The translations under genes were made by a program, and so were the position numbers. Positions 5,905 through 26,476 of a stretch of DNA of 64,000 bases are shown here, piece after piece. Every line of letters starts with the position of its first letter. Positions within the stretch are counted from its first letter, which is position 1. The notes beneath the pieces were generated by a model. The model was not told the DNA's origin. It made no database searches and saw only the letters and a list, made by a program, of their open reading frames with translations. This DNA is from an uncultured Chloroflexia bacterium. Its GTDB lineage: Bacteria > Chloroflexota > Limnocylindria > Limnocylindrales > CSP1-4. The DNA lies in the NCBI GenBank assembly GCA_963727585.1, contig CAVSHH010000003.1, positions 2,218,772-2,282,771 of the forward strand, given 5' to 3'.

Positions 5905-5917
5905 CAGCCTCGCGCCG

Positions 5918-6931: not shown

Positions 6932-8007
6932 CACCAGCCGAGGGCCTGCGCCACGCCCGCGATGGTGGGCTCTGCCTCCAGCATCTCGACCTCGAGGCCG
7001 CGCTCGGCGGTATGGGGGTCCTTGAGCCCGTTGCCCGTCAGCACGCACACGACGGCTGCGTCGCGCTCCACCTCCCCCGCGGCGGCGGCCGCCATCACGC
7101 CGGCCACCGAGGCGGCCGATGCCGGCTCGCAGAACACGCCCTCGAGACGGGCGAGCTCACGGTATGCGTGGAGGATCTGGTCGTCCGTCACGGCGTCGAT
7201 CCGGCCGCCCGACTCGTCACGGGCGCCGGTGGCGAGGTTCCACGAGGCGGGGTTGCCGATCCGGATGGCGGTCGCGACGGTCTCCGGGGTCTCGACCGGG
7301 TGGCCAAGGACGATCGGCGCGGCGCCGGCCGCCTGGAAGCCCCACATCCGCGGCGTTGCGTCGACGATGCCCGCGGCGCGGTACTCCTTGAACCCCTTCC
7401 AGTAAGCGCTGATGTTGCCCGCGTTGCCGACCGGGATAGCGAGGATCGCGGGCGCCCGGCCGAGATCGTCGCAGACCTCGAAGGCGGCGGTCTTCTGCCC
7501 CTCGAGCCGGTACGGGTTCACCGAGTTGACCAGCGTGATCGGGTGGTCGTCCTGCTCGGACAGGGCGCGTACGACCCGCAGGGCATCGTCAAAGTTGCCG
7601 TCGACGCTGACCACGCGCGCTCCGAACACCAGAGCCTGGAGCAGCTTGCCCGTCGCGATCTTCCCGGCCGGCAGGACGACGATGCACTCGAGGCCGGCCG
7701 CGGCGGCGTACGCGGCGGCGGATGCGGAGGTGTTGCCGGTCGAGGCGCAGATCACGCTCTGCGCCTCCGCCTCGAGGGCCTTGGCGACGGCCATCACCAT
7801 GCCCCGGTCCTTGAACGACCCGGTCGGGTTCATGCCCTCGAACTTGAGATACAGGTTCGGCACGCCGATGCGCGCTCCCAGGCGCCGGGCCGGGATCAGG
7901 GGCGTCGCCCCCTCGCCCAGCGAGACGACGGGCGTGGCGTCGGTCACCGGCAGGAAGTCCCGGTAGCGCTCGACGAGGCGCGGGCGGGGCGGGAGGGTCA
8001 CGGTCAC
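6928..8007 (-). CDS. thrC: threonine synthase
   Basis: PLP-dependent threonine synthase: FKDRGM carries the PLP lysine; [18 protein letters not shown] and GNGLKDP are also present. GTG start at 8007 ([21 protein letters not shown]) is chosen by analogy with mycobacterial ThrC N-termini. It lies 6 nt downstream of the hom stop. Confidence 0.9.
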
Positions 8008-8012
8008 GGCGG

Positions 8013-9134
8013 TCAGTCCCCGACCGGGTAGCAGGCGCCCGACGGCGCGGCGATGCACTCGCCGGCGACCGGCCGGATCTGGATCCCGGAGGTCTCGGTG
8101 GCGGATCGCGAGCCGGCCCAGGTGGATCCCAGGCCGCGGGCGATGGACACCAGGTCGCCGAGCACGGCGGCGCCGGCCGCCGGACCCCCGGCACCGGGAC
8201 CCTCGAACGCGACCCGCCCGACCGGCGACGCATCCACCTCGATCCGGTTGAGCACCCCATCGCAGCGGCCGAAGGCGCTGTCCACGGGCACGGCGGTGGG
8301 CACCACCGACGCCTCGATGGCGCCGTCCTCGGCCAGCCGGCTGGTCGCGATCAGGCGCAGGACGCGACCCTCCTCCGCGAGCGCGGCCACGTCGGCGGCG
8401 GTGACGCCGGTGATGCCGGGCCGGCCTGGGACGCCGGTCGTGGAGCCGGGCCGGTTGCCGACGCTGGCGGGCTGGATCCAGGCGCCGAACGCGAGCCGGA
8501 CGAGGATCACCAGCTTGTTCAGCGCGTCGAGGCCTTCCACGTCCGCGGTGGGATCGAGCTCGGCATAACCCCTGGCCTGGGCCTCCCTGAGCACCTCGTC
8601 GTAGTCGCGACCCTCGCGCGTCATCGCGCTGAGCATGTAGTTCGTGGTGCCGTTGACGATGCCGCGAACCCGGGCGATCCGGTTGGCAGCGAGATCCTGG
8701 GCGATGGGGCCGAGGACCGGGATGCCACCGCCAACGGCTGCCTCGAACCGGAAGGTCGCCCCGCCGTCGCGGGCCAGACGCTCGAGCTCCGGCCCGTGGT
8801 GGGCCACGATGTGCTTGTTCGCGGTGACCACGTGCTTGCCGGCGGCGAGGGCGGCGCTCACGAGCGTGTGGGCCGGTTCCGCACCCCCCATGGTCTCGAC
8901 GACGATGTCCACGTCCTCGCTGGCGACGAGGTGGGCCGGCGCATCAGTCAGGATGCCTTCCGGGATGCCGAACTCGATCGCGCGATCGGTGGACTTCTCG
9001 GCCACGGCGGTCAGCACGAGGGGTGCGCCGTCGCCGGGGGCAAGGCGCGGCGACCGCTCGAGGAAGGCGCGGACGACCTCGCGGCCGACGGTGCCGGCGC
9101 CGATGACGCCGACGCGCAGGGGCTGAACGCTCAC
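8013..9134 (-). CDS. hom: homoserine dehydrogenase
   Basis: NAD-binding [14 protein letters not shown]-terminus, catalytic domain ([22 protein letters not shown]) and a C-terminal ACT domain. GTG start at 9134. The upstream 165 codons of the ORF are low-complexity and rejected. Confidence 0.85.
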
Positions 9135-9564
9135 AGGGCCTCTCACAACGGCAGTGGACGGTGGCCGCGATGGTAGCGAACGCGGGCGCTGGAACGCGAG
9201 GCGGTGGCTGCCCGGCCGCGCGAACCCAACGGCTGGACACCACGCCGGCCCCGGGCAAGGTTCCCCCCCACGGGCGACACACCAACCCGATTCGGCCCGA
9301 CACCGGACCGGCCGAGTCGACGCGACTGGCGTACCCTGGCGATGGATCGAGCCTCGCTGGTCGCGCAGTGTGCTGCGGTGCCCGCCGGCATCGACGAGCG
9401 GGACCCGGGACGAGTCCTGGTCGATGCCGACCGCCCTGAGCAAGGGCGCCACCGATCGGATGATCCCGCTCATCGAGACCTGGTCGTGCGTCTTCGGTCT
9501 GGGGGCGGGGCGACGACGCGCTGCCGTTCGCGACGCTCTACGGGGCGACACTCGTCGCACTGGC

Positions 9565-9630
9565 CCCGGGCGCCCCTCCCAGGCGCTCGGCCGTTGCCTC
9601 CCAGGCGCTCGGCCCGTTGCCTCCCAGGCC
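9565..9630. repeat. tandem direct repeat, about 22-bp unit x3 (CCTCCCAGGCGCTCGGCC(C)GTTG) within the hom-trpS intergenic region
   Basis: Read directly: gcgcccctcccaggcgctcggccgttgcctcccaggcgctcggcccgttgcctcccaggcc. Confidence 0.6.
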
Positions 9631-9891
9631 ATGGATTCGCGGTCTCACGGTCGCATCTGGGCTTGCCAAGCCAACTCCCGACCGCGGATCGGCCGGATCC
9701 TCGCTGATGCCCGCCAATTCTGTGTCTGGGGAGCCAAGAGTCGACCATTGGGCGTCGATCCCGTCGCCTGACAGGCCGATCGTCGACAACCCCGCGGACG
9801 TCGGCAAGAACGGCCGGGGGCCCCGAGACCCGCACGGGATCGCCGGCCACCCTCCGCGCCCCGCTCGCGCTCCGATACACTCCGGCGCACC

Positions 9892-10911
9892 ATGACCATT
9901 GAGCTCATGCCGGCTCCGTCGCCCACGGAGGCTCCGGCTCCTCGCCCGCGCATCTTCTCGGGCATCCAGCCCTCCGGGATCGTGCACCTCGGCAACGACC
10001 TCGGCGCGATCCGGAACTACGTGATGCTCCAGTTCGAGTACGAGGCGATCTACTGCATCGTCGACTACCACGCCCTGACCAGCACGCACGACCCGGTGGC
10101 CATGCGGGCACGTACCCGTGAGATGGCCGCCAGCCTGCTCGCGCTTGGCCTGGACCCGGAGCGCTGCACGCTGTTCGTCCAGAGCCACCGCCCCGAGCAC
10201 ACGGAGCTGATGTGGCTGCTCGCGACCGTGACCCCCGTCAGCTGGCTGGAGCGGACGCCCACCTACAAGGACAAGATCGCCAACCAGCCGGACGACGTGA
10301 ACCACGGGCTGCTGACGTATCCGGTGCTCCAGGCGGCCGACATCGTGCTCTACAAGGCCTCGCTGGTGCCCGTGGGCAAGGACCAGGCGGCGCATCTCGA
10401 GCTCAGTCGCGAGATCGTCCGCTCGTTCAACAACCGGTACGGCGCGACCTTCCCGGAGCCGCAGGCGGTCTTCACCAGCGCGCCCGTCGTGCTGGGCACC
10501 GACGGCGTCAAGAAGATGTCCAAGTCGGTCGGCAACACGATCGAGATCCTGGCCTCGCCGGACGAGATCCGGAAGCAGGTCATGTCGATGGTCACCGACA
10601 CCCAGCGGGTCCTGCGCACCGACCCCGGCCGGCCCGAGGTGTGCAACGTCTGCCAGCTGCACCGCTTCTTCGGGGACGACTACGAGGAGATCTGGGATGG
10701 GGAGCGGACGGCGCGAACCGGGTGTGTCGACACCAAGCGGCTGCTGGCCCAGCGGATCATCGACCGCTACGCAGCCGCTCGCGAGCGCTACGCGGAGCTG
10801 ATGGCCAATCCTGCCGACGTCGACGGGATCCTCGAAGCCGGCGCTGACCGCCTCAAGCCGCTGGCCCGGGCCACGCTGGCCGAGGTCAAGGCGAAGATGG
10901 GGCTGCGCTAG
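9892..10911 (+). CDS. trpS: tryptophan--tRNA ligase
   Basis: Class I aaRS motifs are present: the HIGH-like segment (SGIQPSGIVHLGN) and KMSKS (VKKMSKSVGN). Full-length, 339 aa. Confidence 0.95.
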   Translation: MTIELMPAPSPTEAPAPRPRIFSGIQPSGIVHLGNDLGAIRNYVMLQFEYEAIYCIVDYHALTSTHDPVAMRARTREMAASLLALGLDPERCTLFVQSHRPEHTELMWLLATVTPVSWLERTPTYKDKIANQPDDVNHGLLTYPVLQAADIVLYKASLVPVGKDQAAHLELSREIVRSFNNRYGATFPEPQAVFTSAPVVLGTDGVKKMSKSVGNTIEILASPDEIRKQVMSMVTDTQRVLRTDPGRPEVCNVCQLHRFFGDDYEEIWDGERTARTGCVDTKRLLAQRIIDRYAAARERYAELMANPADVDGILEAGADRLKPLARATLAEVKAKMGLR

Positions 10912-12272: not shown

Positions 12273-13312
12273 CTGGCGCGGACGACCGCCCGGACGCTCC
12301 GCCTCCCGGGGAGACGCAACCGCAGGCGCCGGAGATGACCCGGGAACGCGCCCGGGCCGAGCGCCGGGACCTGGACAAGGAGCGCGGGGAGCCGGTCGCC
12401 GGCTCGCGCGGCAAGCACCGCGCCCTCAAGCGTGTCGGCCGGCCGCTCGGGTCGTGGGGATCGCGGCCGCGGATCCTGGTCACCAACGACGACGGCATCG
12501 AGTCGCGTGGACTACTCGCGCTCAAGCTCGCGCTCGACCCCATCGGCGACGTCACCGTCGTGGCTCCGGATCTCAACCAGTCCGCGGTCGGCCATACCAA
12601 GACGCTCATGCGGCCGCTCCGCGTCCGGGAGCGGACCCTCGCGGACGGCTCGACCGGGTATTCGGTGGACGGCTCCCCCACCGACTGCGTCTCGCTCGCG
12701 TTCCTGGGCTTCTTCGATGAGCGCTTCGACCTCGTGGCCTCAGGCATCAACTACGGCGCCAACCTGGGCGACGACATCACCTACTCGGGGACCGTCTCGG
12801 CCGCGATGGAGAGCGTGATCCTCGGCGCCCCGGCGTTCGCCATCAGCCAGGAGTACGAGGAGCACATCGACTTCACCCTCGCCTCCAAGGCGGCGGCCGT
12901 GGTCGCGCGCAACATCCTGGAGCATGGTCTCAAGCGAGGCGAGCTGGTCTCGGTCAACGTGCCTGCCGTCCCGGTCGAGGCCTGCGGCGGGTTCGAGGTC
13001 ACCCGGGTCGGCCGGCGCGTCTACCAGGATGAGCTGATCCAGCGCTTCGACCCGCGAGGCCTTCCGTACTACTGGATCGGCGGGCCGCCGCCCTCCGGCA
13101 TCAGCGTGCCCGGTACCGACTTCAACGCCGTCGTCAACCGGCTGATCTCCGTCACGCCCATCCACCTCGATCTCACCGGACGTCGACTGCTCCGCCAGCT
13201 GCGAACCTGGGACTGGACGCTGGAGACCGAGGCGGGTGCCGAGCAGGTGCCCGAGTCGAGTCGGGCCGAGGAGGAGCGCCTGGCGGACGAGGCCCGGATG
13301 GACCGCCGCTGA
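12269..13312 (+). CDS. surE: 5'/3'-nucleotidase SurE
   Basis: SurE core motifs are present (RILVTNDDGIESRGLLAL ... SGINYGANLGDDITYSGTVSAAME). The ATG overlaps the preceding stop (ATGA). There is a roughly 65-aa low-complexity N-terminal extension, so the true start may be internal. Confidence 0.8.
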   Translation: MTGADDRPDAPPPGETQPQAPEMTRERARAERRDLDKERGEPVAGSRGKHRALKRVGRPLGSWGSRPRILVTNDDGIESRGLLALKLALDPIGDVTVVAPDLNQSAVGHTKTLMRPLRVRERTLADGSTGYSVDGSPTDCVSLAFLGFFDERFDLVASGINYGANLGDDITYSGTVSAAMESVILGAPAFAISQEYEEHIDFTLASKAAAVVARNILEHGLKRGELVSVNVPAVPVEACGGFEVTRVGRRVYQDELIQRFDPRGLPYYWIGGPPPSGISVPGTDFNAVVNRLISVTPIHLDLTGRRLLRQLRTWDWTLETEAGAEQVPESSRAEEERLADEARMDRR

Positions 13313-13380
13313 CCGGGAGAACGGCTGGCTCCGGGCGCCGACCAGAGCCCGTCGGGCACGACCGGTCTGGCGCCCCGGCG

Positions 13381-14994
13381 CTACCGCTTCCGCTTCTTCA
13401 GGTCGGCGATCACCTCGCCCGCCGCGTTGCGCCCGGGAACGCCGGTCACGCCGCCGCCGGGGTGAGCACCGGACCCGGCGAGGTAGAGCCCCTCCACCGG
13501 CATCCGGTAGCGGGCCCAGCCGAGCAGCGGCCGCCACAGGAAGAACGAGTCGAGCGCGGGCTCGGCGTGGAACGGGTGACCGCCCGACAGCCCGTACTCC
13601 GTCTCGAGGTCGGCAGGGGTGAGCACCTGGCGGGTCCGGATGCGGGCGCCCAGGCCAGGAAGGACCAATTCCAGCGTCCGGATTGCGAGATCCCCGACCT
13701 CGTCGCGGCGCGCCGCCCACTCGCCAGGCGACAGCGACGGCGGCATCCACTGGACGATCGCGCTCATCACGTGCGTGCCGTCCGGCGCGCCGGCGACCAG
13801 CGACGGGTCGACCAGCGACGGGATCGTCGCCTCCATCACCGGGGATGCCGGCAGCAACCCGTACTTGGACGCGTCGAACGCGCGCTCCACGTCGTCGATG
13901 GAGGTGGCCCCGACCAGGATCCGGCCGCGCAGCTTCCGCTGCTCACCGGCGGCGGCCGGTACGTCGGGCAGGCCGTCGAGCACGAGGTTGACCTTGGCGA
14001 CCGTGCCGGGGGTCCGGATGTTGCCGGCGCGCCAGCGCATCGAGGGGCCGATCGTGACCGGGTCGACCAGCGACGTGAGCAGGCGCTTGGGGTCCAGCCC
14101 CGAGACCACGGCCGTGGCCGCGATCTCCTCACCCGACTCGAGCGCCACGCCGGTCACCGCCCCGTCACGGGTGGTCACGGCCGCGACGCGGGCGCCGGTG
14201 CGGATCTCGCCACCGGCGGCGCGCACCGCGGAGGCCAGCGCCTCGGAGACAGCGCCGGGGCCACCCCTGGCGAACACGGTCTCGCCCGAGCCGCCGCCGT
14301 CGTTGCCGGCAGCGTCGGCGAGCAGGGTCGACGTCGAGCCCGCGGACCACGGTCCCATCGCGGTGTAGCGGACCGCCCGCCAGGCGGTGGCCGCGCGAAT
14401 GGGCTCCGCCTCGAACGACTCGGCCACGAAGTCCGCGGCGGCCATCGCGAGCACGCGCAGGATCGTCCGGCCGTCCTCACGACCGAGGCCACGGAACGCA
14501 CGGCCGAGACGCAGGCCGAGGAGGGCATCGCCGAATGCTGGGGCCGCGATGTCGGGTGGCACCTCGTCGCCGAGGTCGGCCAGGAAGTGCGACAGCGAGC
14601 GCACCCGGCGGTCGAACTCCACGAAGGCCGTTGCATCGTCCACGGAGAACGGGCGCAGCGCGTCCACTGTCTTGGCGAGGTTGGCGTGGAGCGTCACGGC
14701 ACGCCCGTCGGGCTGGGGTGCGAACACCCGCACGTCGGGCGCGACGAGCGACAGCCCGTGCACGGCCAGGTCCAGCTCGCGGACCACCGCCGGCTTGAGC
14801 CGGCCGACCGTGTGGGCAAGCGTCGGGACCCGGACGCCGCCCAGCTCCTCGGTCACGGCGGCGCCGCCCACCACGGGCCGCGCCTCGAGGACCAGGACCC
14901 GGAGCCCTGCCTTGGCCACGTAGGCTGCCGCGGTCAGGCCGTTGTGGCCGGCTCCGACCACGATCGCGTCGTACTGGTTCATCGACTGCGCCAT
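13381..14994 (-). CDS. NAD(P)/FAD-dependent oxidoreductase (phytoene-desaturase-like, COG1233)
   Basis: Rossmann dinucleotide motif at the N-terminus (YDAIVVGAGHNGLTAAAYVAKAGLRVLVLE) and a C-terminal LYLAGSGAHPGGGVTG. ATG at 14994. The listed 974-aa ORF is a composite; its upstream part is antisense to the paralogue. Confidence 0.8.
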   Translation of the reverse strand: MAQSMNQYDAIVVGAGHNGLTAAAYVAKAGLRVLVLEARPVVGGAAVTEELGGVRVPTLAHTVGRLKPAVVRELDLAVHGLSLVAPDVRVFAPQPDGRAVTLHANLAKTVDALRPFSVDDATAFVEFDRRVRSLSHFLADLGDEVPPDIAAPAFGDALLGLRLGRAFRGLGREDGRTILRVLAMAAADFVAESFEAEPIRAATAWRAVRYTAMGPWSAGSTSTLLADAAGNDGGGSGETVFARGGPGAVSEALASAVRAAGGEIRTGARVAAVTTRDGAVTGVALESGEEIAATAVVSGLDPKRLLTSLVDPVTIGPSMRWRAGNIRTPGTVAKVNLVLDGLPDVPAAAGEQRKLRGRILVGATSIDDVERAFDASKYGLLPASPVMEATIPSLVDPSLVAGAPDGTHVMSAIVQWMPPSLSPGEWAARRDEVGDLAIRTLELVLPGLGARIRTRQVLTPADLETEYGLSGGHPFHAEPALDSFFLWRPLLGWARYRMPVEGLYLAGSGAHPGGGVTGVPGRNAAGEVIADLKKRKR

Positions 14995-14996
14995 GG

Positions 14997-16619
14997 TCAG
15001 GCCACCTTCCGGCCGCGCGACTTGAGAAGCTCGAGCGCGGCGAGACGCCCGTTGGCGCCCATCAGGCCGCCGCCCGGATGGGTGGACGAGCCCGACAGCC
15101 ACAGGTTCTCGATCGGCGTCCGGAACCGGGCATAGCCCGGGACCGGCCGGTTGAAGAACAGCTGCTCGAGGCTGAGCTCGCCCTGGAAGATGTTGCCCTC
15201 GGTGAGGCCCATCGTCCGCTCGATGTCGAGCGGAGTGAGGACCTGGCGGCCGATGATGATGTCCCGGATGTTGGGCGCGAACTCGGCGATCCGGTTGATG
15301 ACCGCGTCGCCGAACGCCTCCCGGTTGTCGTCCCAGCTCCCCAGCCCGGGCGCCAGCTTGTAGGGCGCGTACTGGACGAAGCAGCTGATCACGTGCTTGC
15401 CCGGCGGCGCCATCTGGGGGTCGACCAGGGTTGGGATGATCATGTCGATGTACGGGCGGTTGCTCCAGTGCCCGTACTTGGCGTCGTCGTACGCCTGCTC
15501 CATCTCCCGGGTGGTGGGGCTGAAGCTGATGGCACCGCGGAGATGCTCGCCGACGCCCGGCAGGGCCGTGAACTCCGGCAGCCGGTCGACCGCGAGGTTG
15601 ACCTTGCCCGAGCTGCCGCGGAACTTGAACCGGCGGATCTCCTGCTCGAAGTCGCCCGGCAGGCTGCCCGCCTCCAGCAGATCGAGGAAGGTGACCTTCG
15701 CGTCGGCCGAGGACAGGACGGCGGTGGCCTCGATCTCCTCGCCGCTCTCGAGCACCACGCCGGTCGCGCGGTCGCCCTTGAGGCTGATGCTGGCGACGGG
15801 CGCCTCGGTGCGGATCTCGGCGCCCAGCGCCTGCGCCGCCCGGGCGATCGCGTAGGACACGCCCCCGGTGCCGCCCTTGGGGATGCCCCAGGCGCGGAAG
15901 GCGCCGTCGATCTCGCCCATGTAGTGGTGGAGCAGGACGTACGCCGTGCCGGGCGAGTTGATGCCCTGGTAGGTGCCGATGATGCCCGAGGCGGACATGG
16001 TCGCCTTGAGCGGGTCCGTCTCGAACCACTGGTCGAGGAAGTCCTTGGCCGACATCGTCATCAGCTGGACGAACACGGCCTGCTGGCGCTCGGGCAGCTG
16101 GGCGAACCGGCGGGCGAGGCTCGCGAGCGGCATCAGCGGGCGCGGGTCGTTGTCGGTCGGGTCCGGCGGGACAATGCCCAGGATCGGCTTGATGAACCGG
16201 GCCATCTCCACCATCAGCTGGCCGTACTCCTCGTACGCCTCGGCGTCCGCGGTGGACCAGCGGCGAAGCTCGCGTACCGTGCGCCCGTGGTCGTTCACCC
16301 GCCACAGGTAGTCGCCGCCACCCTTCGCCGGTCCCTCGCCCGGGCGAAGCGGGGTGAACGTGCCGTCGAGCGGCAGGATGTCGAGGCCGAACTTCGGCAG
16401 CTCCAGGTCGCGGATGATCTCGGGCCGCAGCAGGCTCACGACGTAGCTCGCGACCGAGAACCGGAACCCGGACACGATCTCCTCGGTCACCGCGGCACCG
16501 CCAAGGACGTGGCGGCGCTCGAGGACCACGACCTTCATCCCGGCCCTCGCCAGGTACGCGGCGGAGATGAGCCCGTTGTGCCCTCCGCCGATGATCACCG
16601 CGTCGTAGCGTTGCGGCAC
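14997..16619 (-). CDS. NAD(P)/FAD-dependent oxidoreductase (phytoene-desaturase-like, COG1233), tandem paralogue
   Basis: YDAVIIGGGHNGLISAAYLARAGMKVVVLE ... LWLSGSSTHPGGGLMG. The stop is 2 nt upstream of the ATG of the downstream paralogue. Confidence 0.8.
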   Translation of the reverse strand: MPQRYDAVIIGGGHNGLISAAYLARAGMKVVVLERRHVLGGAAVTEEIVSGFRFSVASYVVSLLRPEIIRDLELPKFGLDILPLDGTFTPLRPGEGPAKGGGDYLWRVNDHGRTVRELRRWSTADAEAYEEYGQLMVEMARFIKPILGIVPPDPTDNDPRPLMPLASLARRFAQLPERQQAVFVQLMTMSAKDFLDQWFETDPLKATMSASGIIGTYQGINSPGTAYVLLHHYMGEIDGAFRAWGIPKGGTGGVSYAIARAAQALGAEIRTEAPVASISLKGDRATGVVLESGEEIEATAVLSSADAKVTFLDLLEAGSLPGDFEQEIRRFKFRGSSGKVNLAVDRLPEFTALPGVGEHLRGAISFSPTTREMEQAYDDAKYGHWSNRPYIDMIIPTLVDPQMAPPGKHVISCFVQYAPYKLAPGLGSWDDNREAFGDAVINRIAEFAPNIRDIIIGRQVLTPLDIERTMGLTEGNIFQGELSLEQLFFNRPVPGYARFRTPIENLWLSGSSTHPGGGLMGANGRLAALELLKSRGRKVA

Positions 16620-16751
16620 GCCACCCTCCAGTCGGGAACCCAGCGACGCGCTCGGCCGCGGTCGCTATTCAGCCTGCATCGTGAGCATGCAGTCTATCGG
16701 ACCCTCGCCGACGTCGGCTTCGGCATCGCGCCGAACGCCAGGTTGGCCCGG

Positions 16752-19745
16752 TCACCAGCCATCGTCCAGCGTGCGTTCCAGGGCGGCAATCACGTGATCC
16801 GCGCTCTCCCGGGTGAGACACAGGGGCGGCTTGACCTTGAGCACGTTGCCGCCGTCTCCGGTGGGCTGGACGATCACGCCCAGCTCGAGCATCCGCTCGC
16901 AGATGGCGGACGCCTCGTCGCGGGCGGGCTCGAGGGACTCCGCGTCGCGGATGAGCTCGACGCCCAGGTAGAGCCCCATCCCGTGGACCGCCCCGACGAT
17001 CGCGTGGCGGTCCGCCAGCGCCTCGAGCCCGGCCTTGAGGTGTGCGCCGACCCGCCAAGCGTTGCCCTGCAGCCCCTCCTCGTCCATCGCCTGGAGAACG
17101 GCCAGCCCGGCCGCGCAGGCGACCGGCGAGCCGCCCACCGTGGAGAAGAACGAGCCTTCCGCTGCGAACGCGTCGGCGACGGCGCGGGTCGTCACCACGG
17201 CGCCCACGGCCATCCCGTTGCCGGCCGCCTTGGCCACGGTGACGATGTCGGGCACCACGCCCTGCTGCTGGAACGCCCACTCGAACGCGCCAAGCCGCCC
17301 GTAGCCGGTCTGGACCTCGTCGGCGATGGCCAAACCGCCGGCTGCACGCACGTCCCGGTAGACCTGCGCGAGGTAGCCGTCGGGCAGCACCACGCCGCCC
17401 GCGTTGCCGAACAGCGGCTCCGCGATGAACGCGGCGGGCCGATGGCCATCGGCGGCAATGCCGGCGAGCGTCGTCCGGACGCTGTCCGCGTAGCGGGTCC
17501 CCGCATCCGGCCCGCGATGGAGGCCCCGGTAGACGTTGGGCGCCTCGACTGTACGCACCCAGGACGGCCGGGTCCCGATCGCGTTCGGGTTGTCGAGATG
17601 CGAGGTGGAGATCGCGTCGGTGGCGGCGGTCCAGCCGTGGTAGGCGCCACGGACCGCCAGCACCTCGGTGCCCCCGGTGGCGGTCCGCGCGAGTCGCAGC
17701 GCCAGCTCGTTGGCCTCGGAGCCGGTGTTGACCACGAACACCGTGTCGAGCGGGGCCGGGAACCGGGCGACCAGGGCCTCGGCGTACTCGACCATCACCG
17801 CATACAGGAACCGGGAGTTGGTGTTGAGCCGGGCGAGCTGGCCGCGGACGGCGGCCTCCACGGCCGGGTGGCTGTGGCCCAGGACGGCGACGTTGTTGAC
17901 GACGTCGACGTACGACCGACCACCGGTGTCGACGAGGTGGTGGCGCCAGCCGCGCTCGATCCTCGGCGGGGCCGCGAAGTAGTGCTCCTGGACCGGGGCG
18001 AGCACGGCGTCCCGCCGGGCACGGAGGCCACCGGGGTCGTCCGGCGGGGCGGCGACGGGTGCCAGGCCGAGCAGGTGGGAAGGGTCCGGACACAGGCGCC
18101 GCCAGGCCGCGGCGATCGACGATTGGGCGCGGCGCGGCGCGATCAGGCCGGGCTGGTCGATCCGCTGGACGTGGACGCCCGCAGGCCGGCCGTCGGCACG
18201 AGGCCGGTCCACCTGTCCCAGCTGCTCCCCGGCGGCAACCTCGGTCCCGTCGCCGACGCTCGGCCTGATACCGTCGAGCCGGAGCGTCACCGCCCCGCCC
18301 TCCAGGGCGAGCCCGCCGGCGATGTGACGTGCCCGGCCGTCGATCGGCGCCCGGATCCGGGCGCCGGCCTCGACGAAGACGTCCACGCCGAGGTGCACCG
18401 TGGCCGGCTCCTCGGCCGTGTCCAGCTCGGTGTCCGCGAGCCGCGCCTCGCCCCATCGCCCGATCGCCCGCCCCCCGGCGCGTGCCACCGCCGCGGCGAG
18501 CGCCTGCCGGTCGCCCGTGGCCGCACCGTCGAGGTCGTCTGACGTCGTGGACAGGTCGAGGACCGGCAGTCGATCGATCCCGGGCAGCAGCGGCGCATGG
18601 GCCACCTCGACCTGCGATCGATCGATCGAGGCCAGCCCGGCCGTCTCGCGCAGCACCTCGGTGGCCAGCGGGAACGGGATCGCCGCGACGGCCTCGAGCG
18701 CCGTCCACTCCTCCGCGCGGGTCGCGTGCACGTAGGCATTGTCCGGTTCCAGCGTCCCCTGCTGGTCGCCGCTGATCGCGACCGCCGCCGCCCGGGCCAC
18801 GACCATCGGCCACACCGCGGCGAGCTCGGCTTCCTCCAGCGGGAGCAGCGGCAGGAACCCGCGGGCGACCTCCCGCCCGAGCTGGATCGGACGAGCCGGG
18901 TCGTGGGCCACATCGGCGGCGATGGTCACCGCCAGCTCCGCCGCGAGCCACGTTCGTGACAGGTCGCCGAAGTCGATCAGCCCGACGGGCATCGGGCGGC
19001 CCGCGGCGTCGCGCCGGGTGACCGTGTTGAGGTCCGTCACGTCCTGGTGGACCACCCGGACACGCAGCTCCGGGGCAAGCGCGTCGAGGGCGGCCGTCGC
19101 GTCCTCGATGGCTTGCGTGAGCAGGCGGCGGTGGGCCGGTGTGGCGGCGAACGGGAGCAGGGCCCCAACGACGTCGCCGGCATGCCGCACGTCCCACTGG
19201 AGCACGCGGTCGAGCGACGGGTGATCCCAGCCGTCGAGCGCCAGGGCGATCGTGGCGGCCATCGCGCCGTGCGCCCTCAGCACGCCCGGAGCGAGGTACC
19301 GGGCCCGGTCGAGCGGCTCACCGTCGATCCAGGTCACGAGGCGCAGGTCGTGGGCTGCGCCGGCGGCCGTGACAGCCGCGACGATCAGCGAGCTGTCCGT
19401 TGCCGGCTGCGGGACCGGCACCTCGAACGGGAGGCCGGCGGCCGCGGCCCGGATCATCGCCTCGTTCTCCGCCTCCAGCCCGGCGCGCGACAAGCCCCGG
19501 CGGGCGATCTTGAGCACGTACCGGTCACCGGCGGGTGTCGTGACCCGGTAGTTGCGGTCCTGGTGGCTGCCCAGCTCGCGCAGCACCCCGTCGACGCCGA
19601 AGTGGTCGCGCAGCAGACGGGCGGCCTCCGCCGCCTCGACATCGGGGCGGCGATGCTCGTGGCCATCGAAGGGATTGGGTCGCTGCGGCTCGGGTCGCCG
19701 TGGTCCGGACCGCGAGGATCGGTGATGCACGGCCCCATGGTGCAC
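16752..19745 (-). CDS. tri-domain fusion protein: aminoglycoside-phosphotransferase-like kinase / M23 (LytM)-like beta-barrel / class-III PLP aminotransferase-fold (phospho-lyase-like)
   Basis: N-terminus has APH/choline-kinase-like motifs (VHQDVTDLN and IDFGD). The middle has an M23-like segment (VHLGVDVFVEAGARIRAPIDG ... GEQLGQVD). The C-terminus is class III aminotransferase-like (LGHSHPAVEAAV ... DEVQTGYGRLG ... TVAKAAGNG, with the Schiff-base lysine). 997 aa, no internal stop. Confidence 0.8.
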   Translation of the reverse strand: MHHGAVHHRSSRSGPRRPEPQRPNPFDGHEHRRPDVEAAEAARLLRDHFGVDGVLRELGSHQDRNYRVTTPAGDRYVLKIARRGLSRAGLEAENEAMIRAAAAGLPFEVPVPQPATDSSLIVAAVTAAGAAHDLRLVTWIDGEPLDRARYLAPGVLRAHGAMAATIALALDGWDHPSLDRVLQWDVRHAGDVVGALLPFAATPAHRRLLTQAIEDATAALDALAPELRVRVVHQDVTDLNTVTRRDAAGRPMPVGLIDFGDLSRTWLAAELAVTIAADVAHDPARPIQLGREVARGFLPLLPLEEAELAAVWPMVVARAAAVAISGDQQGTLEPDNAYVHATRAEEWTALEAVAAIPFPLATEVLRETAGLASIDRSQVEVAHAPLLPGIDRLPVLDLSTTSDDLDGAATGDRQALAAAVARAGGRAIGRWGEARLADTELDTAEEPATVHLGVDVFVEAGARIRAPIDGRARHIAGGLALEGGAVTLRLDGIRPSVGDGTEVAAGEQLGQVDRPRADGRPAGVHVQRIDQPGLIAPRRAQSSIAAAWRRLCPDPSHLLGLAPVAAPPDDPGGLRARRDAVLAPVQEHYFAAPPRIERGWRHHLVDTGGRSYVDVVNNVAVLGHSHPAVEAAVRGQLARLNTNSRFLYAVMVEYAEALVARFPAPLDTVFVVNTGSEANELALRLARTATGGTEVLAVRGAYHGWTAATDAISTSHLDNPNAIGTRPSWVRTVEAPNVYRGLHRGPDAGTRYADSVRTTLAGIAADGHRPAAFIAEPLFGNAGGVVLPDGYLAQVYRDVRAAGGLAIADEVQTGYGRLGAFEWAFQQQGVVPDIVTVAKAAGNGMAVGAVVTTRAVADAFAAEGSFFSTVGGSPVACAAGLAVLQAMDEEGLQGNAWRVGAHLKAGLEALADRHAIVGAVHGMGLYLGVELIRDAESLEPARDEASAICERMLELGVIVQPTGDGGNVLKVKPPLCLTRESADHVIAALERTLDDGW

Positions 19746-19824
19746 CGCCGGACGGCCGCCGGCCTGGCGGCACCCACACCGGTCTCATGCATACTCACGG
19801 GGTCAGCCCAGCAGGAGGAGCCTC

Positions 19825-21015
19825 GTGAGCGTCGGCACCCCGTTCCATCCCCGCGCCGCGGCCATGAATCGAAAGATGCAGTGGCGCGAGTGGGCGGGCT
19901 ACTTCGCGTCCACGGTGTACGCCGATTTCCACGACATCGAGTACAACGCGATCCGTGAGGCGGCGGCCGTCATCGACGTCAGCCCGCTGTACAAGTACCG
20001 GGTCAGCGGACCCGACGCCCTCCGCCTCGCCGACCGGGTCGTCACCCGCGACGCGTCGAGGCTGAAGGTCGGCCAGGTGATGTACACGCCGTGGTGCGAT
20101 GAGCACGGCAAGGTCATCGACGACGGCACGGTGCAACGGGTCGGGGAGCAGGAGCTGCGCTGGACCGCGGCGGATCCGCAGTTCCGCTGGCTGACCCTCA
20201 ATGCCGCGGGGCTCGACGTGCAGGTCGACGACGTGACGGACTCGCTCGGCGCGCTCGCGCTCCAGGGCCCGTACAGCCGGGCCGTGCTGGAGGCGGCGAC
20301 CGGCGAGTCGTTCGATGACCTGCGCTACTTCCGGCGCCGCTCCAGCGCGATCGGCGGGGTGGACGTCGACGTCAGCCGCACCGGCTACACGGGCGACCTG
20401 GGCTACGAGCTGTGGGTCCCGGCCGAGTCGGCGCCGGCCGTGTGGGACGCCCTGTTCGCTGCGGGCGCGGCCTACGCGATCCGACCCGCGGGGATGGACG
20501 CCCTCGACGTCGTGCGGCTCGAGGCCGGCCTGATCATGCTCGATGTCGACTACACGTCCGCGCGGCATGCGATGAACCCGGAGCAGAACTACAGCCCGTT
20601 CGAGCTGGGCCTCGGCGGGCTGGTCAGCTTCGACAAGGCCGACTACGTGGGCCGCCGAGCGCTCCGGGCCGAGGTATCGGCGGGCGGCCCCGCGCGCCGG
20701 CTGGTCGGCCTCCAGCTGGACTGGTACGACATCGAGGGGATGTTCGACGCCCACGGCCTGCCACCCGCGATCAGCCCCCACATCGACCGCTCCCCCGTGC
20801 CTGTGTTCGCCGACGGTCGCCAGGTGGGCAAGTCGACCTCGCACGGCTGGAGCCCGATCCTCAAGCAGGCGATCGCGCTCGCTTTCGTCCCACCCCGCCA
20901 CGAGCGGCCGGGCGCCCAGCTCCAGGTGGAGTGGACGGTCGAGGGCCGGCGTGGCCGGGTCGGCGCGACGGTGGTCGAGCTGCCCTTCCTCGACCTGCCG
21001 CGCAAGCGCGAGTGA
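19825..21015 (+). CDS. aminomethyltransferase family protein (GcvT-like, folate-binding)
   Basis: GcvT-fold motifs are present (AIREAAAVIDVSPLYKYRVSGPDA ... SRTGYTGDLGYELWVP ... MDALDVVRLEAGL). Divergent from the fusion gene, 80-bp gap. Confidence 0.8.
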   Translation: MSVGTPFHPRAAAMNRKMQWREWAGYFASTVYADFHDIEYNAIREAAAVIDVSPLYKYRVSGPDALRLADRVVTRDASRLKVGQVMYTPWCDEHGKVIDDGTVQRVGEQELRWTAADPQFRWLTLNAAGLDVQVDDVTDSLGALALQGPYSRAVLEAATGESFDDLRYFRRRSSAIGGVDVDVSRTGYTGDLGYELWVPAESAPAVWDALFAAGAAYAIRPAGMDALDVVRLEAGLIMLDVDYTSARHAMNPEQNYSPFELGLGGLVSFDKADYVGRRALRAEVSAGGPARRLVGLQLDWYDIEGMFDAHGLPPAISPHIDRSPVPVFADGRQVGKSTSHGWSPILKQAIALAFVPPRHERPGAQLQVEWTVEGRRGRVGATVVELPFLDLPRKRE

Positions 21016-22451
21016 GCGCCGAGCGGCCGCGCTCCTCCCCGGCCTCGACGCCGTCCCCGCGGACCCTGCCCGAACCCGACTGGGACGCCTTCGACCGGCT
21101 GGTCACGGCGCGCATCGACGGCTGGGTCGCGGAGCTGCTGGAGTTCCTTCGCATCCCCTCGGAGGGTGGCGACGACGTCGAGCTGAGGCGGGCGGCCGAC
21201 TGGACCGCGGATCGCCTCCGGCGGGCAGGGGCGCAGGTGGAGATCCTCGAGGTCGATGGTGCGCCGCCGCTCGTGGTCGGCGAGGTCGGCGCCGGCGACC
21301 GGACGCTGGTCAACGTCGTCCACTACGACGTCCAGCCCGCGGCGCCGGTCGAGCTGTGGACGACGTCGCCCTACGAGCCCGCGGTCCGCGACGGCCGGGT
21401 CTGGGCGCGGGGCGCCACCGACAACAAGGGCGAGTTCCTGCCGCGGGTCTGGGCGCTCGAGGCGTACCGCGATTCGATCGGTCCGCTCCCGGTACGCGTC
21501 CGGCACCTCGTCGAGGGACAGGAGGAGACGGGCAGCGGGGCGCTGGACGCGCTGCTCGACCTGCGACCCCACCTGCGCGACGCGGATGCGGCGCTGATCG
21601 AGGGCGGTGAGCTCGATCTCGCGGGCCGACCGCAGATCGCCGGCGGTGGCAAGGGCATCGTCGTCCTCGAGCTGCGGCTGCGGACGCTTGCCCACGACGC
21701 GCACTCCAGCCTGTCGGTCGTGCTGCCCAACGCCGGCCAGCGAATGGTCCTGGCGCTCGCGACCCTGTGGGACGAGGAGGGACGACCCGTGGTGGAGGGC
21801 CTGGAGGCCGGCAAGCGTGCGCCGCGCGAGGACCAGCTGGCGGCCACCCGGTCCATGGACCTCGCCACGCTCGACGACCTGCGCCGCGACTTCGGCGTGC
21901 GGCGCTTCGTGGGCGATATCGACGGCTACGACGCCCTGGAGGCGCTCACCTTCGAGACCACCCTCAACCTGGAGGGGTTGTGGTCAGGCCACACTGCGAC
22001 CACTCCCAAGACCGTGACCCCGGCCGAGGCCCACGCCCGGCTGGACATCCGGATCGTGCCCGACCAGGACCCGGCCGAGATGACGGCCGCCGTCCGTCGC
22101 CACCTCGACCGGGAGGGCTTCGGCGACATCGAGGTCATCGAGCGCGAGGGGGAGGCGGCCTGGTGGACGCCGCCCAGCCACCCGGTCGTGGAGCTGGCCG
22201 CACGGGTGTCGGAGGCTGTCACCGGCCAGGAGGCGAGCATCGGCGTTTCGATGCCCGGCACGGTGCCCATGCACCAGGTCTGTGCGCTACACCGCCTGCC
22301 CGCCACGACGCTGGGCGCCGGGCGTGCCGACTGTCGCGCACACGCGCCGGACGAGAACATCCGGATCGAGGACCTGGTGGCCGCGACCCGGATGATGGCC
22401 CGGTTCATCGACGGGCTCGCCCGCCTGCCCGACGTGCCGAAGGTCACCTGA
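21012..22451 (+). CDS. M20 family metallopeptidase / amidohydrolase (ArgE/DapE/CPG2-like)
   Basis: GTG start overlaps the GcvT-like stop (GTGA). M20 motifs are present (HYDVQPA ... WARGATDNKGEFL ... HLVEGQEETGSGA, dimerisation domain, HAPDENI). Confidence 0.8.
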   Translation: MSAERPRSSPASTPSPRTLPEPDWDAFDRLVTARIDGWVAELLEFLRIPSEGGDDVELRRAADWTADRLRRAGAQVEILEVDGAPPLVVGEVGAGDRTLVNVVHYDVQPAAPVELWTTSPYEPAVRDGRVWARGATDNKGEFLPRVWALEAYRDSIGPLPVRVRHLVEGQEETGSGALDALLDLRPHLRDADAALIEGGELDLAGRPQIAGGGKGIVVLELRLRTLAHDAHSSLSVVLPNAGQRMVLALATLWDEEGRPVVEGLEAGKRAPREDQLAATRSMDLATLDDLRRDFGVRRFVGDIDGYDALEALTFETTLNLEGLWSGHTATTPKTVTPAEAHARLDIRIVPDQDPAEMTAAVRRHLDREGFGDIEVIEREGEAAWWTPPSHPVVELAARVSEAVTGQEASIGVSMPGTVPMHQVCALHRLPATTLGAGRADCRAHAPDENIRIEDLVAATRMMARFIDGLARLPDVPKVT

Positions 22452-22493
22452 GCGTGTTCCGGTGCGACCCCGGCCTGCGCGATCTGCCCTCGC

Positions 22494-23198
22494 TCAGCCG
22501 CCCTGGATCGTCGCTCCGGACATCGTCTCGACGCTGACCGAGGCCGGCTGGGACGTCAGCTGGAGGGTCGAGCCCCCGTCGGCCACGCCGGTCAGCGCAG
22601 TGACCACGTGAACCTCGGCGGCGGAGCCGTCGTTGAGATTGACCTGGGCATCCTGCGCCTCGAGCTCACCCAGCATCGCATGGGAACCGGATGAGGCCGT
22701 CAGGGTCAGGTCGGGAGTGGTCCCGATTGCGGTCAACTGGGCACCGCCCGAGACGTCGACGTTGAGATCGCCGCCCGTGTGCTCGAGATAGCCGACGGCC
22801 CCGTTCGAGAGCGCGACGGAATCGACCTGGGTCATCCGCAGCGAGAGCGACAGCGGCTCGGTGGAGTTGATCCCGGGGCTGGGGATCATGACGATCAGCT
22901 GGCCGTCGACGACCTCGGTCCTGATGGCGTCGAGCAGGTTCTGCTGGGCGGCGACGCTGACTTCCTGTTCGTCGGCCTCCCCGATCACGACCTTGAAGCC
23001 CCCCGCCACGCTCACGCGGCTGAACGGGGGCAGATCTCGCAGGTCGGTCACCACCTCTCCCTCGCCCTGGACGCCCGGTCCTTCGCCGGGCACGTCCAAC
23101 TTGGCGCCGCAGCCGCCGAGCGAGGCGGCGAGCAGCAGCCCCGGCAGCAGGGCGAGCAGGGCGTGGGCGGGAGCGCGGCGAAGCGCGCGAGCAGGCAT
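22494..23198 (-). CDS. putative lipoprotein with a beta-helical DUF2807/DUF4097-like head domain
   Basis: Internal ATG at 23198 gives a signal peptide with a lipobox (MPARALRRAPAHALLALLPGLLLAASLGGCG). The remaining sequence is Gly/Val/Asp-rich and repeat-like. Confidence 0.6.
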   Translation of the reverse strand: MPARALRRAPAHALLALLPGLLLAASLGGCGAKLDVPGEGPGVQGEGEVVTDLRDLPPFSRVSVAGGFKVVIGEADEQEVSVAAQQNLLDAIRTEVVDGQLIVMIPSPGINSTEPLSLSLRMTQVDSVALSNGAVGYLEHTGGDLNVDVSGGAQLTAIGTTPDLTLTASSGSHAMLGELEAQDAQVNLNDGSAAEVHVVTALTGVADGGSTLQLTSQPASVSVETMSGATIQGG

Positions 23199-24793: not shown

Positions 24794-26368
24794 TCAGGCT
24801 GGCCGGACCGCCCAGGTCCCGCCAGATCCCGTCACCCGGAGGACCGCGAGGCGTGCGAGGTTGACCGCGGCGGCGAGGAGGGCGAAGTCGGCGCCAACCT
24901 TCAGCCTGCCGCGGACACGAGCCCGCCGCCCGCCGTGTCGTCGGCGGACGAGATGGGCGAGCTTGCGCTCGACCTTGGGACGCGTTGCCCGGTAGTCGGC
25001 GAGCCAGGCGGGGTCGCGCGTGTCGGCGCGGCCGGCAGTGAGAAGCGCCTCGTGCGGGCCGACAGCGATCGAGCGACCGCGAGCCGAGGTCGTGCACCGG
25101 CTGACCAGCGGGCAGGTGGTACAGGCGCTTCGGAAGCGCGCCTGGGCCTCGCCGCGCTGATGCCGCGTGAGCCTGGCGACCCGACCGGCGGGACAGGTGA
25201 CGGTGCCGGCGCCGAGGTCGATCGTGAAGTCGTCCTTGGTGAAGTGCCCAGGCACGCCGTTCGCAGGCTGGACCTTGACCCGGCTGAGCGCGCCCGCCTC
25301 GTCGAGCGCTTCGAGCACCGGGCCCGTCCCATACGCCGCGTCGCCGTACACGACGGGCGGGGTGGCGGGTGCGGCTTCGCGCGCGAGGTCGTGGGTGAGC
25401 AGGGCGAGGGCAACCGAGGCGTCGCCGGCGTTGCCCGGGGTGACCGCGGTCGCGGTGACGAGCTCATGGTCAGGGTCGATCGCGACGTGGCCCTTGTAGC
25501 CGTCGAACCCCCGGGCCTCGGTCTTGTGGCCGTGGCGGGTGTCGGGATCGACCGTGCTGATCACCCGGTCGGGGGCGACCCGCCGGGCGATCCGCACCCG
25601 GCCGTCCGGACCCGGCTCGAGGTCCTGGCCGAGCACCGTGGCGAGCAGGACCGCGGCCTCGGCAAGCGGAGCCTCGAGCGGCTCGCCCTCGAGCCCGGCG
25701 AGCACGGCCTCGCCGTCGCGGGCGAGGGCGTCGACCAGGGCCGCCCGGGCGGTGGCGTCATCCCAGTCCGCGGCGGGCTTGCCGCCCTGGCGGTAGTCGT
25801 CGTCGCGCCGGAGGACGGTGCGCAGGCCGGGCTCGCGCCCGCCCGATGCCGCGAGCACGCCCTGGATCGCCGAGCGGACCAGGGTGACCGTGTCCATGGT
25901 CGCGACCGCGTCGTACAGGGGCGTGGAGTCGAGCACCCGCCGGACGCCGACCAGGCCAGCACCCCGCGCGACCTCGAGCGTGCGCTCGAAGATCCGGTTG
26001 GGACGCTCCGAGCGGGCGAGCCTCGCCCGCATGTCGACGAGCACCGTGTGGGCGAAGCCCGGGGCATCGAAGGGCTGGCCGCCGGCGGCGTACTTCCAGC
26101 GCGCGTCGAAGGTGTACCGCTCGACGGCCTCGCGGTCGGACAGGCCCTCGAGGCGCTGGAGGACCATCACGACCGCGACGACCAGGGGCGGCACCGAGCG
26201 CCGGCCGACGTTGGCCGCGAACAGGTCGCTGAACAGCTCGTCAGGGAACAGCGTGTGGCACTCTCGGGCGAGCAGGGCATGGATCGAGTCGGATCGGACC
26301 AGCGGCTCGACGAAGCTGGCGGTGTCGCGGAACAGGTCGGCCTGACGGGGTGTGGATCCCTGCGACAT
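24794..26368 (-). CDS. IS1182 family transposase (DDE)
   Basis: InsH-type N-terminal domain (ADLFRDTASFVEPLVRSDSIHALLARE), a DDE domain (VDPDTRHGHKTEARGFDGYKGHVAIDPD) and a Cys-rich C-terminus (CPAGRV ... CTTCPLVSRC), as in IS1182-family transposases. Confidence 0.85.
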   Translation of the reverse strand: MSQGSTPRQADLFRDTASFVEPLVRSDSIHALLARECHTLFPDELFSDLFAANVGRRSVPPLVVAVVMVLQRLEGLSDREAVERYTFDARWKYAAGGQPFDAPGFAHTVLVDMRARLARSERPNRIFERTLEVARGAGLVGVRRVLDSTPLYDAVATMDTVTLVRSAIQGVLAASGGREPGLRTVLRRDDDYRQGGKPAADWDDATARAALVDALARDGEAVLAGLEGEPLEAPLAEAAVLLATVLGQDLEPGPDGRVRIARRVAPDRVISTVDPDTRHGHKTEARGFDGYKGHVAIDPDHELVTATAVTPGNAGDASVALALLTHDLAREAAPATPPVVYGDAAYGTGPVLEALDEAGALSRVKVQPANGVPGHFTKDDFTIDLGAGTVTCPAGRVARLTRHQRGEAQARFRSACTTCPLVSRCTTSARGRSIAVGPHEALLTAGRADTRDPAWLADYRATRPKVERKLAHLVRRRHGGRRARVRGRLKVGADFALLAAAVNLARLAVLRVTGSGGTWAVRPA

Positions 26369-26436
26369 CGGTGTGCTCCTGCGATCAGCCCGGCAGCTCC
26401 TGCCAGGGAGAATCGTAGCTGCGCCCGAGCCTGTCC

Positions 26437-26476
26437 GTCAGCCCGTCAGAACGCGCGTTTCACACCAGCCACCTAG
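26437..26476. repeat. IS terminal inverted repeat (right)
   Basis: gtcagcccgtcagaacgcgcgtttcacaccagccacctag. Confidence 0.8.

Follow-up and report, generated by a model that had tools for sequence, protein, structure and literature searches.

The window studied here is a 64-kb stretch (~73% G+C) of contig CAVSHH010000003.1 (assembly GCA_963727585.1), from an uncultured Chloroflexia bacterium. Its main feature is a minus-strand gene (16752..19745) encoding a fusion protein of 997 amino acids, in which a small-molecule kinase domain of the APH fold, a domain of the M23/LytM peptidase fold, and a class-III-fold domain of the pyridoxal phosphate (PLP)-dependent enzymes follow one another in a single chain. 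Two genes are transcribed divergently from it, encoding a GcvT-like aminomethyltransferase-family protein and an M20-family metallohydrolase, and two tandem oxidoreductase genes of the CrtI/CrtO family lie downstream. An earlier note, made from the sequence alone, had proposed that the fusion phosphorylates and then deaminates an amino alcohol, and that it forms with the GcvT-like and M20 genes an uncharacterised catabolic module.

Results

The fusion gene and its family

The reading frame of the fusion is unbroken from its first codon to the stop codon at 16752-16754, and the motifs HQDVTDLN, IDFGD, DEVQTGYGRLG and TVAKAAGNG were all found in its translation, which bears out the earlier description of one open reading frame (ORF) joining kinase, M23/LytM-like and class-III PLP domains. 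Its G+C content at the three codon positions (0.80/0.53/0.91) indicates that 16752..19745 on the minus strand is the true coding frame of a high-GC gene; an overlapping plus-strand ORF of 1154 codons (15078-18542) was accordingly rejected as a shadow ORF. The AlphaFold model of the full-length protein reached a predicted local distance difference test (pLDDT) score of 92.1 and a predicted template modelling (pTM) score of 0.91, with residues 1-12 under a pLDDT of 50. Homologues begin near residue 19, and the N-terminal segment VHHGAVHHRSSRSGPRRPEPQRP (19686-19745, the first ~20 codons) is missing from them. No obvious ribosome-binding site was seen ahead of the ORF start, and no in-frame ATG, GTG or TTG occurs just before the conserved NPFxGxEHRRP motif. 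The first ~20 codons are uncertain, and the true start may lie downstream.

The protein matches the NCBIfam model NF004800 (PRK06149) with 1171.2 bits against a cut-off of 973, residues 28-997 aligning to model positions 9-972. The architecture of this family is identical to that of the window protein, and its name, 'aminotransferase', carries no functional information; the window member differs in retaining the M23 zinc triad, absent from most members in Proteobacteria. The description of an uncharacterised module therefore overstated the novelty of the locus: the fusion gene adds a further Chloroflexota member to a known, curated family, whose architecture and implied function are already present in the literature and in curated hidden Markov model libraries.

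A distribution scan restricted to one genome per species detected relatives encoded at at least 587 loci. Identity to the window protein was 65-70% in Chloroflexota, 47-55% in Actinomycetota including Streptomyces, and 43-48% in Rhizobium/Sinorhizobium and Pseudomonas. The closest relatives (65-77% identity) come from metagenome-assembled genomes (MAGs) of Candidatus Limnocylindrales and uncultured Chloroflexia, so that the actinobacterial setting assumed in the earlier note does not apply. Copies on plasmids are common among the relatives. NF004799 (PRK06148) is a paralogous family of tri-domain proteins; the copy on Sinorhizobium meliloti pSymB belongs to PRK06148, and a Rhodococcus plasmid homologue to PRK06149. 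In one MAG (L005) the fusion is split by a frameshift that places the aminotransferase domain in another frame, probably an assembly error, and a 1581-aa ORF at this locus (5548-10293) was discarded as a frameshift or shadow artefact.

The kinase and PLP domains

The N-terminal domain (residues ~28-385; 18591..19664, minus strand) is matched by Pfam APH (PF01636) over residues 57-283, with an E-value of 3.7e-21 and 76.4 bits against a gathering threshold of 23.2 when the N-terminus was scanned alone. Its site is made up of Lys79, His233-x-Asp235-x4-Asn240 (in HQDVTDLN) and Asp258 (in IDFGD); the HxDxxxxN loop, the metal-binding Asp and the ATP-binding Lys are thus all present. A search of the PDB with the single kinase-domain sequence gave no match; solved relatives emerged with a family profile, the nearest being homoserine kinase and the aminopropanol kinase of the RMM microcompartment. 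Both enzymes phosphorylate alcohols that are small and bear an amino group, which supports a two-step reading of the fusion as a kinase followed by a phospho-lyase.

The C-terminal domain (residues ~582-997; 16755..18002, minus strand) is of the AGXT2L/ETNPPL type within the class-III PLP fold, with Schiff-base Lys839 and Asp809, the Asp of the pyridine nitrogen, and is matched by Pfam Aminotran_3 over residues 596-993 (6e-73). Human ethanolamine-phosphate phospho-lyase ETNPPL (6TOR) is its top relative of solved structure by sequence, with 330 bits and 42% identity, followed by Arthrobacter A1RDF1 (5G4I), with 301 bits and 41% identity. The next solved chains, racemases and dialkylglycine decarboxylase (DGD), score at most 198 bits, leaving a gap of more than 100 bits below the two phospho-lyases. 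The predicted fold of the domain is likewise nearest to ETNPPL and A1RDF1, the only two solved phospho-lyases, and no transaminase or racemase model of NCBIfam approaches its cut-off on the fusion. The motif NTNSRF is common to the window domain and ETNPPL. A second motif reads NVLKVKPP in the window, NVLKIKPP in ETNPPL and NVLKMRPP in A1RDF1; its counterpart in class-III transaminases, ..LR..PPL, presumably has a carboxylate-binding Arg at the position of the NVLK Lys (GabT R398, OAT R413, DGD R406). The choice posed in the earlier note between a phospho-lyase and an ordinary transaminase leans by sequence and predicted fold towards the former, as the domain is closer to ETNPPL and A1RDF1 than to any solved transaminase, racemase or decarboxylase.

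Catalytic residues were counted in 80 species genomes from four groups, including 33 of Rhizobium and 30 of Pseudomonas, and in a separate set of 70 metagenomic relatives. His233, Asp235, Asn240 and Asp258 of the kinase, and Asp809, Lys839 and Arg645 of the lyase, are invariant in all 80 species genomes, and Lys79 is kept in 79, being replaced by Arg in the remaining one; the kinase assignment of the earlier note thereby withstood alignment of the catalytic Asp and Asn (D235, N240). The corresponding residues of both domains are invariant or nearly so in the 70 metagenomic relatives, and Asp809 and Lys839 are unchanged in all 150 relatives of the two sets. The lyase shows the highest mean identity to the window protein (56-79%), followed by the kinase (35-65%) and then by the M23-like part (30-51%).

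From these sequence features, we consider with moderate confidence that the fusion would work on its own in the cytoplasm, as a catabolic enzyme that takes a vicinal amino alcohol through two steps; such a substrate is a molecule with a primary amine beside a hydroxyl group; by analogy, candidate substrates would be compounds such as ethanolamine, 1-amino-2-propanol or a 5-hydroxylysine-like molecule. The alternative that survives best, although we judge it unlikely, is that the C-terminal domain works as an ordinary class-III transaminase, racemase or decarboxylase, with the kinase acting on an unrelated or subsequent substrate, for instance an aminated antibiotic-like compound in resistance or biosynthesis. 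The gap of more than 100 bits separating the two phospho-lyases from every other solved chain argues against it, as do the motifs NTNSRF and NVLK(V/I)KPP shared between the window protein and ETNPPL. Furthermore, a phosphorylated intermediate would be in keeping with the obligate kinase fusion seen in four phyla, and no biosynthetic or resistance context was found among the neighbours of the examined loci.

The M23/LytM-fold middle domain

Between the two enzymatic domains lies a segment of residues ~388-575, linker included (18021..18584, minus strand), whose beta-barrel core spans residues 445-530 (18156-18413). Pfam, which delimited both outer domains, matched Peptidase_M23 (PF01551) to the window segment 388-575 weakly (E=0.0018; 18.8 bits, under the gathering threshold of 28.7); the same model matched 19 of 20 homologous middle segments, at best with 3.9e-8, and several full-length relatives carry precomputed PF01551 annotations. 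The AlphaFold model of the segment had a pLDDT of 78.6 overall and above 90 within the barrel, and each of its 38 Foldseek matches in the PDB at E<=0.001 was an M23/LytM protein (lysostaphin, LytM, EnvC, DipM, Csd3 and ShyA, among others). Alignment with hhalign of the family against the catalytic domain of lysostaphin, with a sequence entered by hand, gave a probability of 93.5%. As judged from the predicted structure, the middle domain is a true LytM fold.

In the hhalign alignment, HLGVD of the family is paired with HYGVD, and GVHVQ with HLHFQ, and Arg489 faces the catalytic His of 'MHLS'. The zinc-ligand triad (H451, D455, H525) is retained in the window protein, whereas the positions of the lysostaphin catalytic residues His82 and His113 are occupied by Arg489 and Gly523. 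The barrel that the earlier note had proposed to examine for HxxxD...HxH therefore keeps its three zinc ligands but not an intact motif, since Gly523 breaks HxH and Arg489 stands at the other catalytic His. Of the 80 species genomes, 10 keep the triad and 6 keep the complete motif; neither His ligand is kept in Rhizobium (0/33) or Pseudomonas (0/30), and the Asp persists in 30 of the 33 Rhizobium genomes. Among the 70 metagenomic relatives, 45 keep the complete HxxxD...HxH. This lineage pattern of site decay, in which Chloroflexota and some Actinomycetota keep the triad and Proteobacteria have lost it, may be modestly new.

A search of 1.84 billion proteins with a profile of the middle domain yielded, at E<=1e-10, 520 cluster representatives. 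Of the best 150 matches, 86 carry the domain at residues 340-410, i.e., behind an N-terminus of kinase length, and the others are mostly short, fragment-like proteins; this LytM variant is thus essentially confined to these fusions.

Retention of the zinc triad together with the loss of both catalytic His residues indicates that the window domain is catalytically degenerate, and on its sequence it is best read as a degenerate, non-catalytic connector, which may still bind a metal ion in the lineage of the window. The confident full-length model (pTM 0.91) points to a fixed arrangement of the predicted domains, which fits such a connector role. Less probable still than a C-terminal transaminase is an enzyme that is truly tri-functional in this lineage, in which an active M23-like metallo-amidase or peptidase would first release the amino alcohol from a conjugate, be it a peptide or an amide, before the kinase and the lyase act on it. 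The triad H451/D455/H525 in the window protein and its Chloroflexota relatives, and the complete motif in the 45 metagenomic relatives, speak for it, and a 2012 abstract by Veiga-da-Cunha et al. is said to refer to 'tri-functional' proteins. Set against these, Gly523 takes the place of the first His of HxH and Arg489 stands opposite the second catalytic His of lysostaphin; both His ligands are gone in all 63 Rhizobium and Pseudomonas members, in which the kinase and lyase sites are invariant; and the domain evolves faster than the rest of the protein and has a Pfam score under the gathering threshold. We likewise give a low probability to a lineage-specific variant of this proposal, according to which the M23 site of those Chloroflexota and Actinomycetota lineages that retain the zinc ligands would be a working metal site with divergent catalytic residues, hydrolytic or substrate-binding in a three-step enzyme, and the proteobacterial form a later simplification to two steps.

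Neighbouring genes in the window

The fusion is separated from the GcvT-like gene by a divergent intergenic region of 79 bp (19746..19824), in which a ribosome-binding site, AGGAGGAG, precedes the GTG start of the GcvT-like gene. Promoter and terminator scans of 13200-22700 were uninformative, and no consensus sigma-70 promoter was found in the intergenic region. The GcvT-like gene (19825..21015, plus strand) encodes 396 amino acids with Pfam GCV_T and GCV_T_C domains. Its best NCBIfam match is the tetrahydrofolate-binding C-terminal half of trimethylamine N-oxide demethylase (289.6 bits), and it falls below the gcvT cut-offs (TIGR00528, 154.8 against 235.85; PRK00389, 216.8 against 300); by sequence, its predicted product is an aminomethyltransferase-family protein only, and no canonical GcvT. 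Its identity is 79-91% among the ~120 top-scoring protein clusters listed, and in this Chloroflexota clade it probably serves as a core enzyme of one-carbon metabolism or demethylation.

The M20-family gene (21012..22451, plus strand) encodes a dipeptidase-like metallohydrolase of 479 amino acids with Pfam Peptidase_M20 and M20_dimer domains, scoring 258.6 against PRK08201, under the cut-off of 441. Its GTG start overlaps the TGA stop of the GcvT-like gene, as read directly at 21012-21015, which confirms the GTGA overlap described in the earlier note.

On the other side, downstream of the fusion, two tandem paralogues of CrtI/CrtO-family flavin adenine dinucleotide (FAD) oxidoreductases (14997-16619 and 13381-14994, minus strand) carry Pfam Amino_oxidase and NAD_binding_8 domains, and their best NCBIfam matches, of the CrtO and crtI families, are all under cut-off. 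They are ~38% identical to each other, and the first is ~89-91% identical in relatives, being among the best-conserved genes of the region. The possibility that these genes encode amine oxidases feeding the pathway was rejected, given their CrtI/CrtO family and their persistence where the fusion is absent. Two genes past the M20 gene, a DDE transposase gene (24794-26437, minus strand; DDE_Tnp_1_6, DDE_Tnp_1 and DUF772) suggests a potential for local rearrangement. Scans of the whole window for tRNA genes, and for Rfam families at gathering threshold, gave no match.

Gene neighbourhoods across genomes

Conservation of the neighbourhood was assessed by tblastn of nine window neighbour proteins against the 80 loci, with 10 kb on each side, and by unbiased clustering of ORFs. 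Within these limits, the GcvT-like, M20 and both CrtI-like genes are confined to four Chloroflexota loci, which also share some or all of SurE, an AI-2E transporter, DUF2807 and an aminotransferase. As the whole region is shared among these four loci, the arrangement indicates plain synteny. None of the 75 genomes outside the clade of the window has the GcvT-like/M20 pair within 10 kb of the fusion, and the sole match to any of these genes among them is a lone GcvT-like gene, 36% identical, which one Rhizobium locus carries at ~6 kb from its fusion. Unbiased clustering of ORFs over the 80 loci revealed no neighbour common across phyla and synteny at the genus level only, which indicates that the kinase and lyase activities travel as one unit.

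Within the clade of the window the genes vary independently of one another, as two syntenic Chloroflexota loci show. One (L081) has the fusion and the GcvT-like gene and no M20 gene, with a PIN-domain gene inserted between the fusion and a CrtI-like gene; the other (L082) has the GcvT-like, M20 and both CrtI-like genes with no trace of the fusion. In L082, three small or unannotated ORFs stand in the place of the fusion, including one encoding a 408-amino-acid protein with no Pfam or NCBIfam match. This variation, together with the absence of the pair outside the clade, does not support the GcvT-like and M20 genes as part of a functional module; as far as their distribution indicates, they and the CrtI-like genes would be neighbours by synteny and not partners in a pathway. 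The functional tie proposed in the earlier note is reduced to a co-localisation in 4 of 80 genomes, all close kin, and this negative result may itself be modestly new. Least probable of the alternatives is a single pathway uniting the fusion with the GcvT-like, M20 and possibly CrtI-like genes, which would act on a phospho-amine or on a precursor that is acylated or N-methylated; the comparison of genomes already largely refutes it. In its favour, the genes stand side by side and divergent in the window as in four relatives from Chloroflexota, and the GcvT-like and M20 genes overlap; but across the clade the GcvT-like protein is 79-91% identical and the fusion 65-77%, which suggests different selective regimes, and insertions part the fusion from the CrtI-like genes in relatives.

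Outside the clade, the neighbourhoods are of several kinds. In the Pseudomonas loci (L014-L077), genes for an AguB-like CN-hydrolase (15/30) and an AguA-like agmatine deiminase (27/30) follow the fusion downstream at a distance of ~0.2-2 kb and in the same orientation; as a matter of speculation, they hint at a polyamine-related substrate such as 2-hydroxyputrescine. Rhizobium loci have PurU upstream of the fusion and an S58 peptidase or amidohydrolase downstream, and the neighbours in Actinomycetota are mixed (MarR, AsnC, methylmalonyl-CoA mutase, LacI and DNA ligase). In two loci only, a Lrp/AsnC regulator gene adjoins the PRK06149 fusion: one on a Streptomyces chromosome (L018, 9197-9637) and one on a Rhodococcus plasmid (L085, 4727-5191). 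The two regulators are 44% identical to each other, and their position suggests that the fusion is induced by an amino acid or amine in actinomycetes. On S. meliloti pSymB (L083/L084, 454-9036), the PRK06148 gene lies in an apparent operon with genes for a LacI regulator, amino-acid ABC transporter components and a short-chain dehydrogenase/reductase (SDR) oxidoreductase; dehydrogenase, kinase and lyase form the same trio as in the mycobacterial aminoacetone/aminopropanol pathway.

Discussion

In this work, we describe a Chloroflexota member of a widespread family of tri-domain fusions. Of the earlier interpretation of the locus, the architecture, the catalytic residues and the kinase-lyase logic stand, and the partnership with the neighbouring genes and the novelty of an uncharacterised module fall away. 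On the two-step reading that we favour, homology indicates that the APH-fold kinase would move the gamma-phosphate of ATP onto the hydroxyl group of the substrate, and that the PLP domain would then build an external aldimine with the substrate amine. Elimination of phosphate would follow, with release of ammonia and an aldehyde or ketone, as in ETNPPL, PHYKPL and A1RDF1. The M23/LytM domain would serve as a scaffold packing kinase and lyase together, with no cleavage of peptides. We infer the order of the reactions, the elimination chemistry and the scaffold role from these resemblances, and any channelling between the two sites would be a conjecture of the same kind.

Several observations weigh against this interpretation. 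We know of no assayed member of the bacterial fusion family, and neither an assay nor a study of any member was found in the literature searched. The neighbourhoods are genus-specific and point to no single substrate. Lastly, all three zinc ligands of the M23 site are present in the window protein, and some metal-site role of this domain may exist.

The succession of a kinase and a phospho-lyase is established for vertebrate HYKK and PHYKPL, and for ETNPPL, and the mycobacterial aminopropanol pathway follows the same logic. The bacterial fusions, described as 'bi- or tri-functional', reportedly served as a clue to the vertebrate assignment in the 2012 abstract by Veiga-da-Cunha et al. In the window protein, all the domains are in one chain, unlike vertebrate ETNPPL/AGXT2L1 (6TOR) and the 5-phosphohydroxy-L-lysine phospho-lyase PHYKPL/AGXT2L2, which are stand-alone enzymes of ~450-500 amino acids lacking an M23-like domain, and whose kinase partner (HYKK/AGPHD1 or ethanolamine kinase) is a separate polypeptide. 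Arthrobacter aurescens A1RDF1 (5G4I) is likewise a stand-alone PLP domain. The mycobacterial RMM aminopropanol kinase (6EF6), 17% identical to the kinase of the fusion, and its partner phospho-lyase are separate proteins encapsulated in a microcompartment, and no microcompartment shell genes were found among the annotated neighbours of the fusion. The degenerate LytM (dLytM) domains of EnvC and NlpD also combine an M23 fold with an incomplete catalytic set, and the LytM domains of EnvC and DipM are among the Foldseek matches; however, the dLytM domains of EnvC and NlpD belong to periplasmic regulators of cell-wall amidases, whereas that of the fusion would lie inside a metabolic enzyme of the cytoplasm and keeps three zinc ligands in the window. 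The identification of the vertebrate enzymes has been called comparative-genomics-assisted (PMC5714238), and the mycobacterial aminopropanol pathway work is cited by title in PMC6787980.

The significance of these results is family-wide, with nothing specific to this window. If the two-step reading is true, the fusion would provide a B12-independent route in a single polypeptide from amino alcohols (ethanolamine, aminopropanol, hydroxylysine-like) to aldehydes, ammonia and phosphate, in a family carried by many bacteria of the soil and the rhizosphere, among them Pseudomonas, Rhizobium/Sinorhizobium, Streptomyces and Chloroflexota. In the 1970s, biochemical work on Erwinia and Pseudomonas described activities of the type 'amino alcohol kinase plus O-phosphate phospho-lyase', and the fusion family could be the missing gene for them. 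The internal degenerate LytM domain would represent an unusual reuse of a cell-wall hydrolase fold within a metabolic enzyme. Since the family is annotated merely as 'aminotransferase', a functional assignment would correct thousands of annotations.

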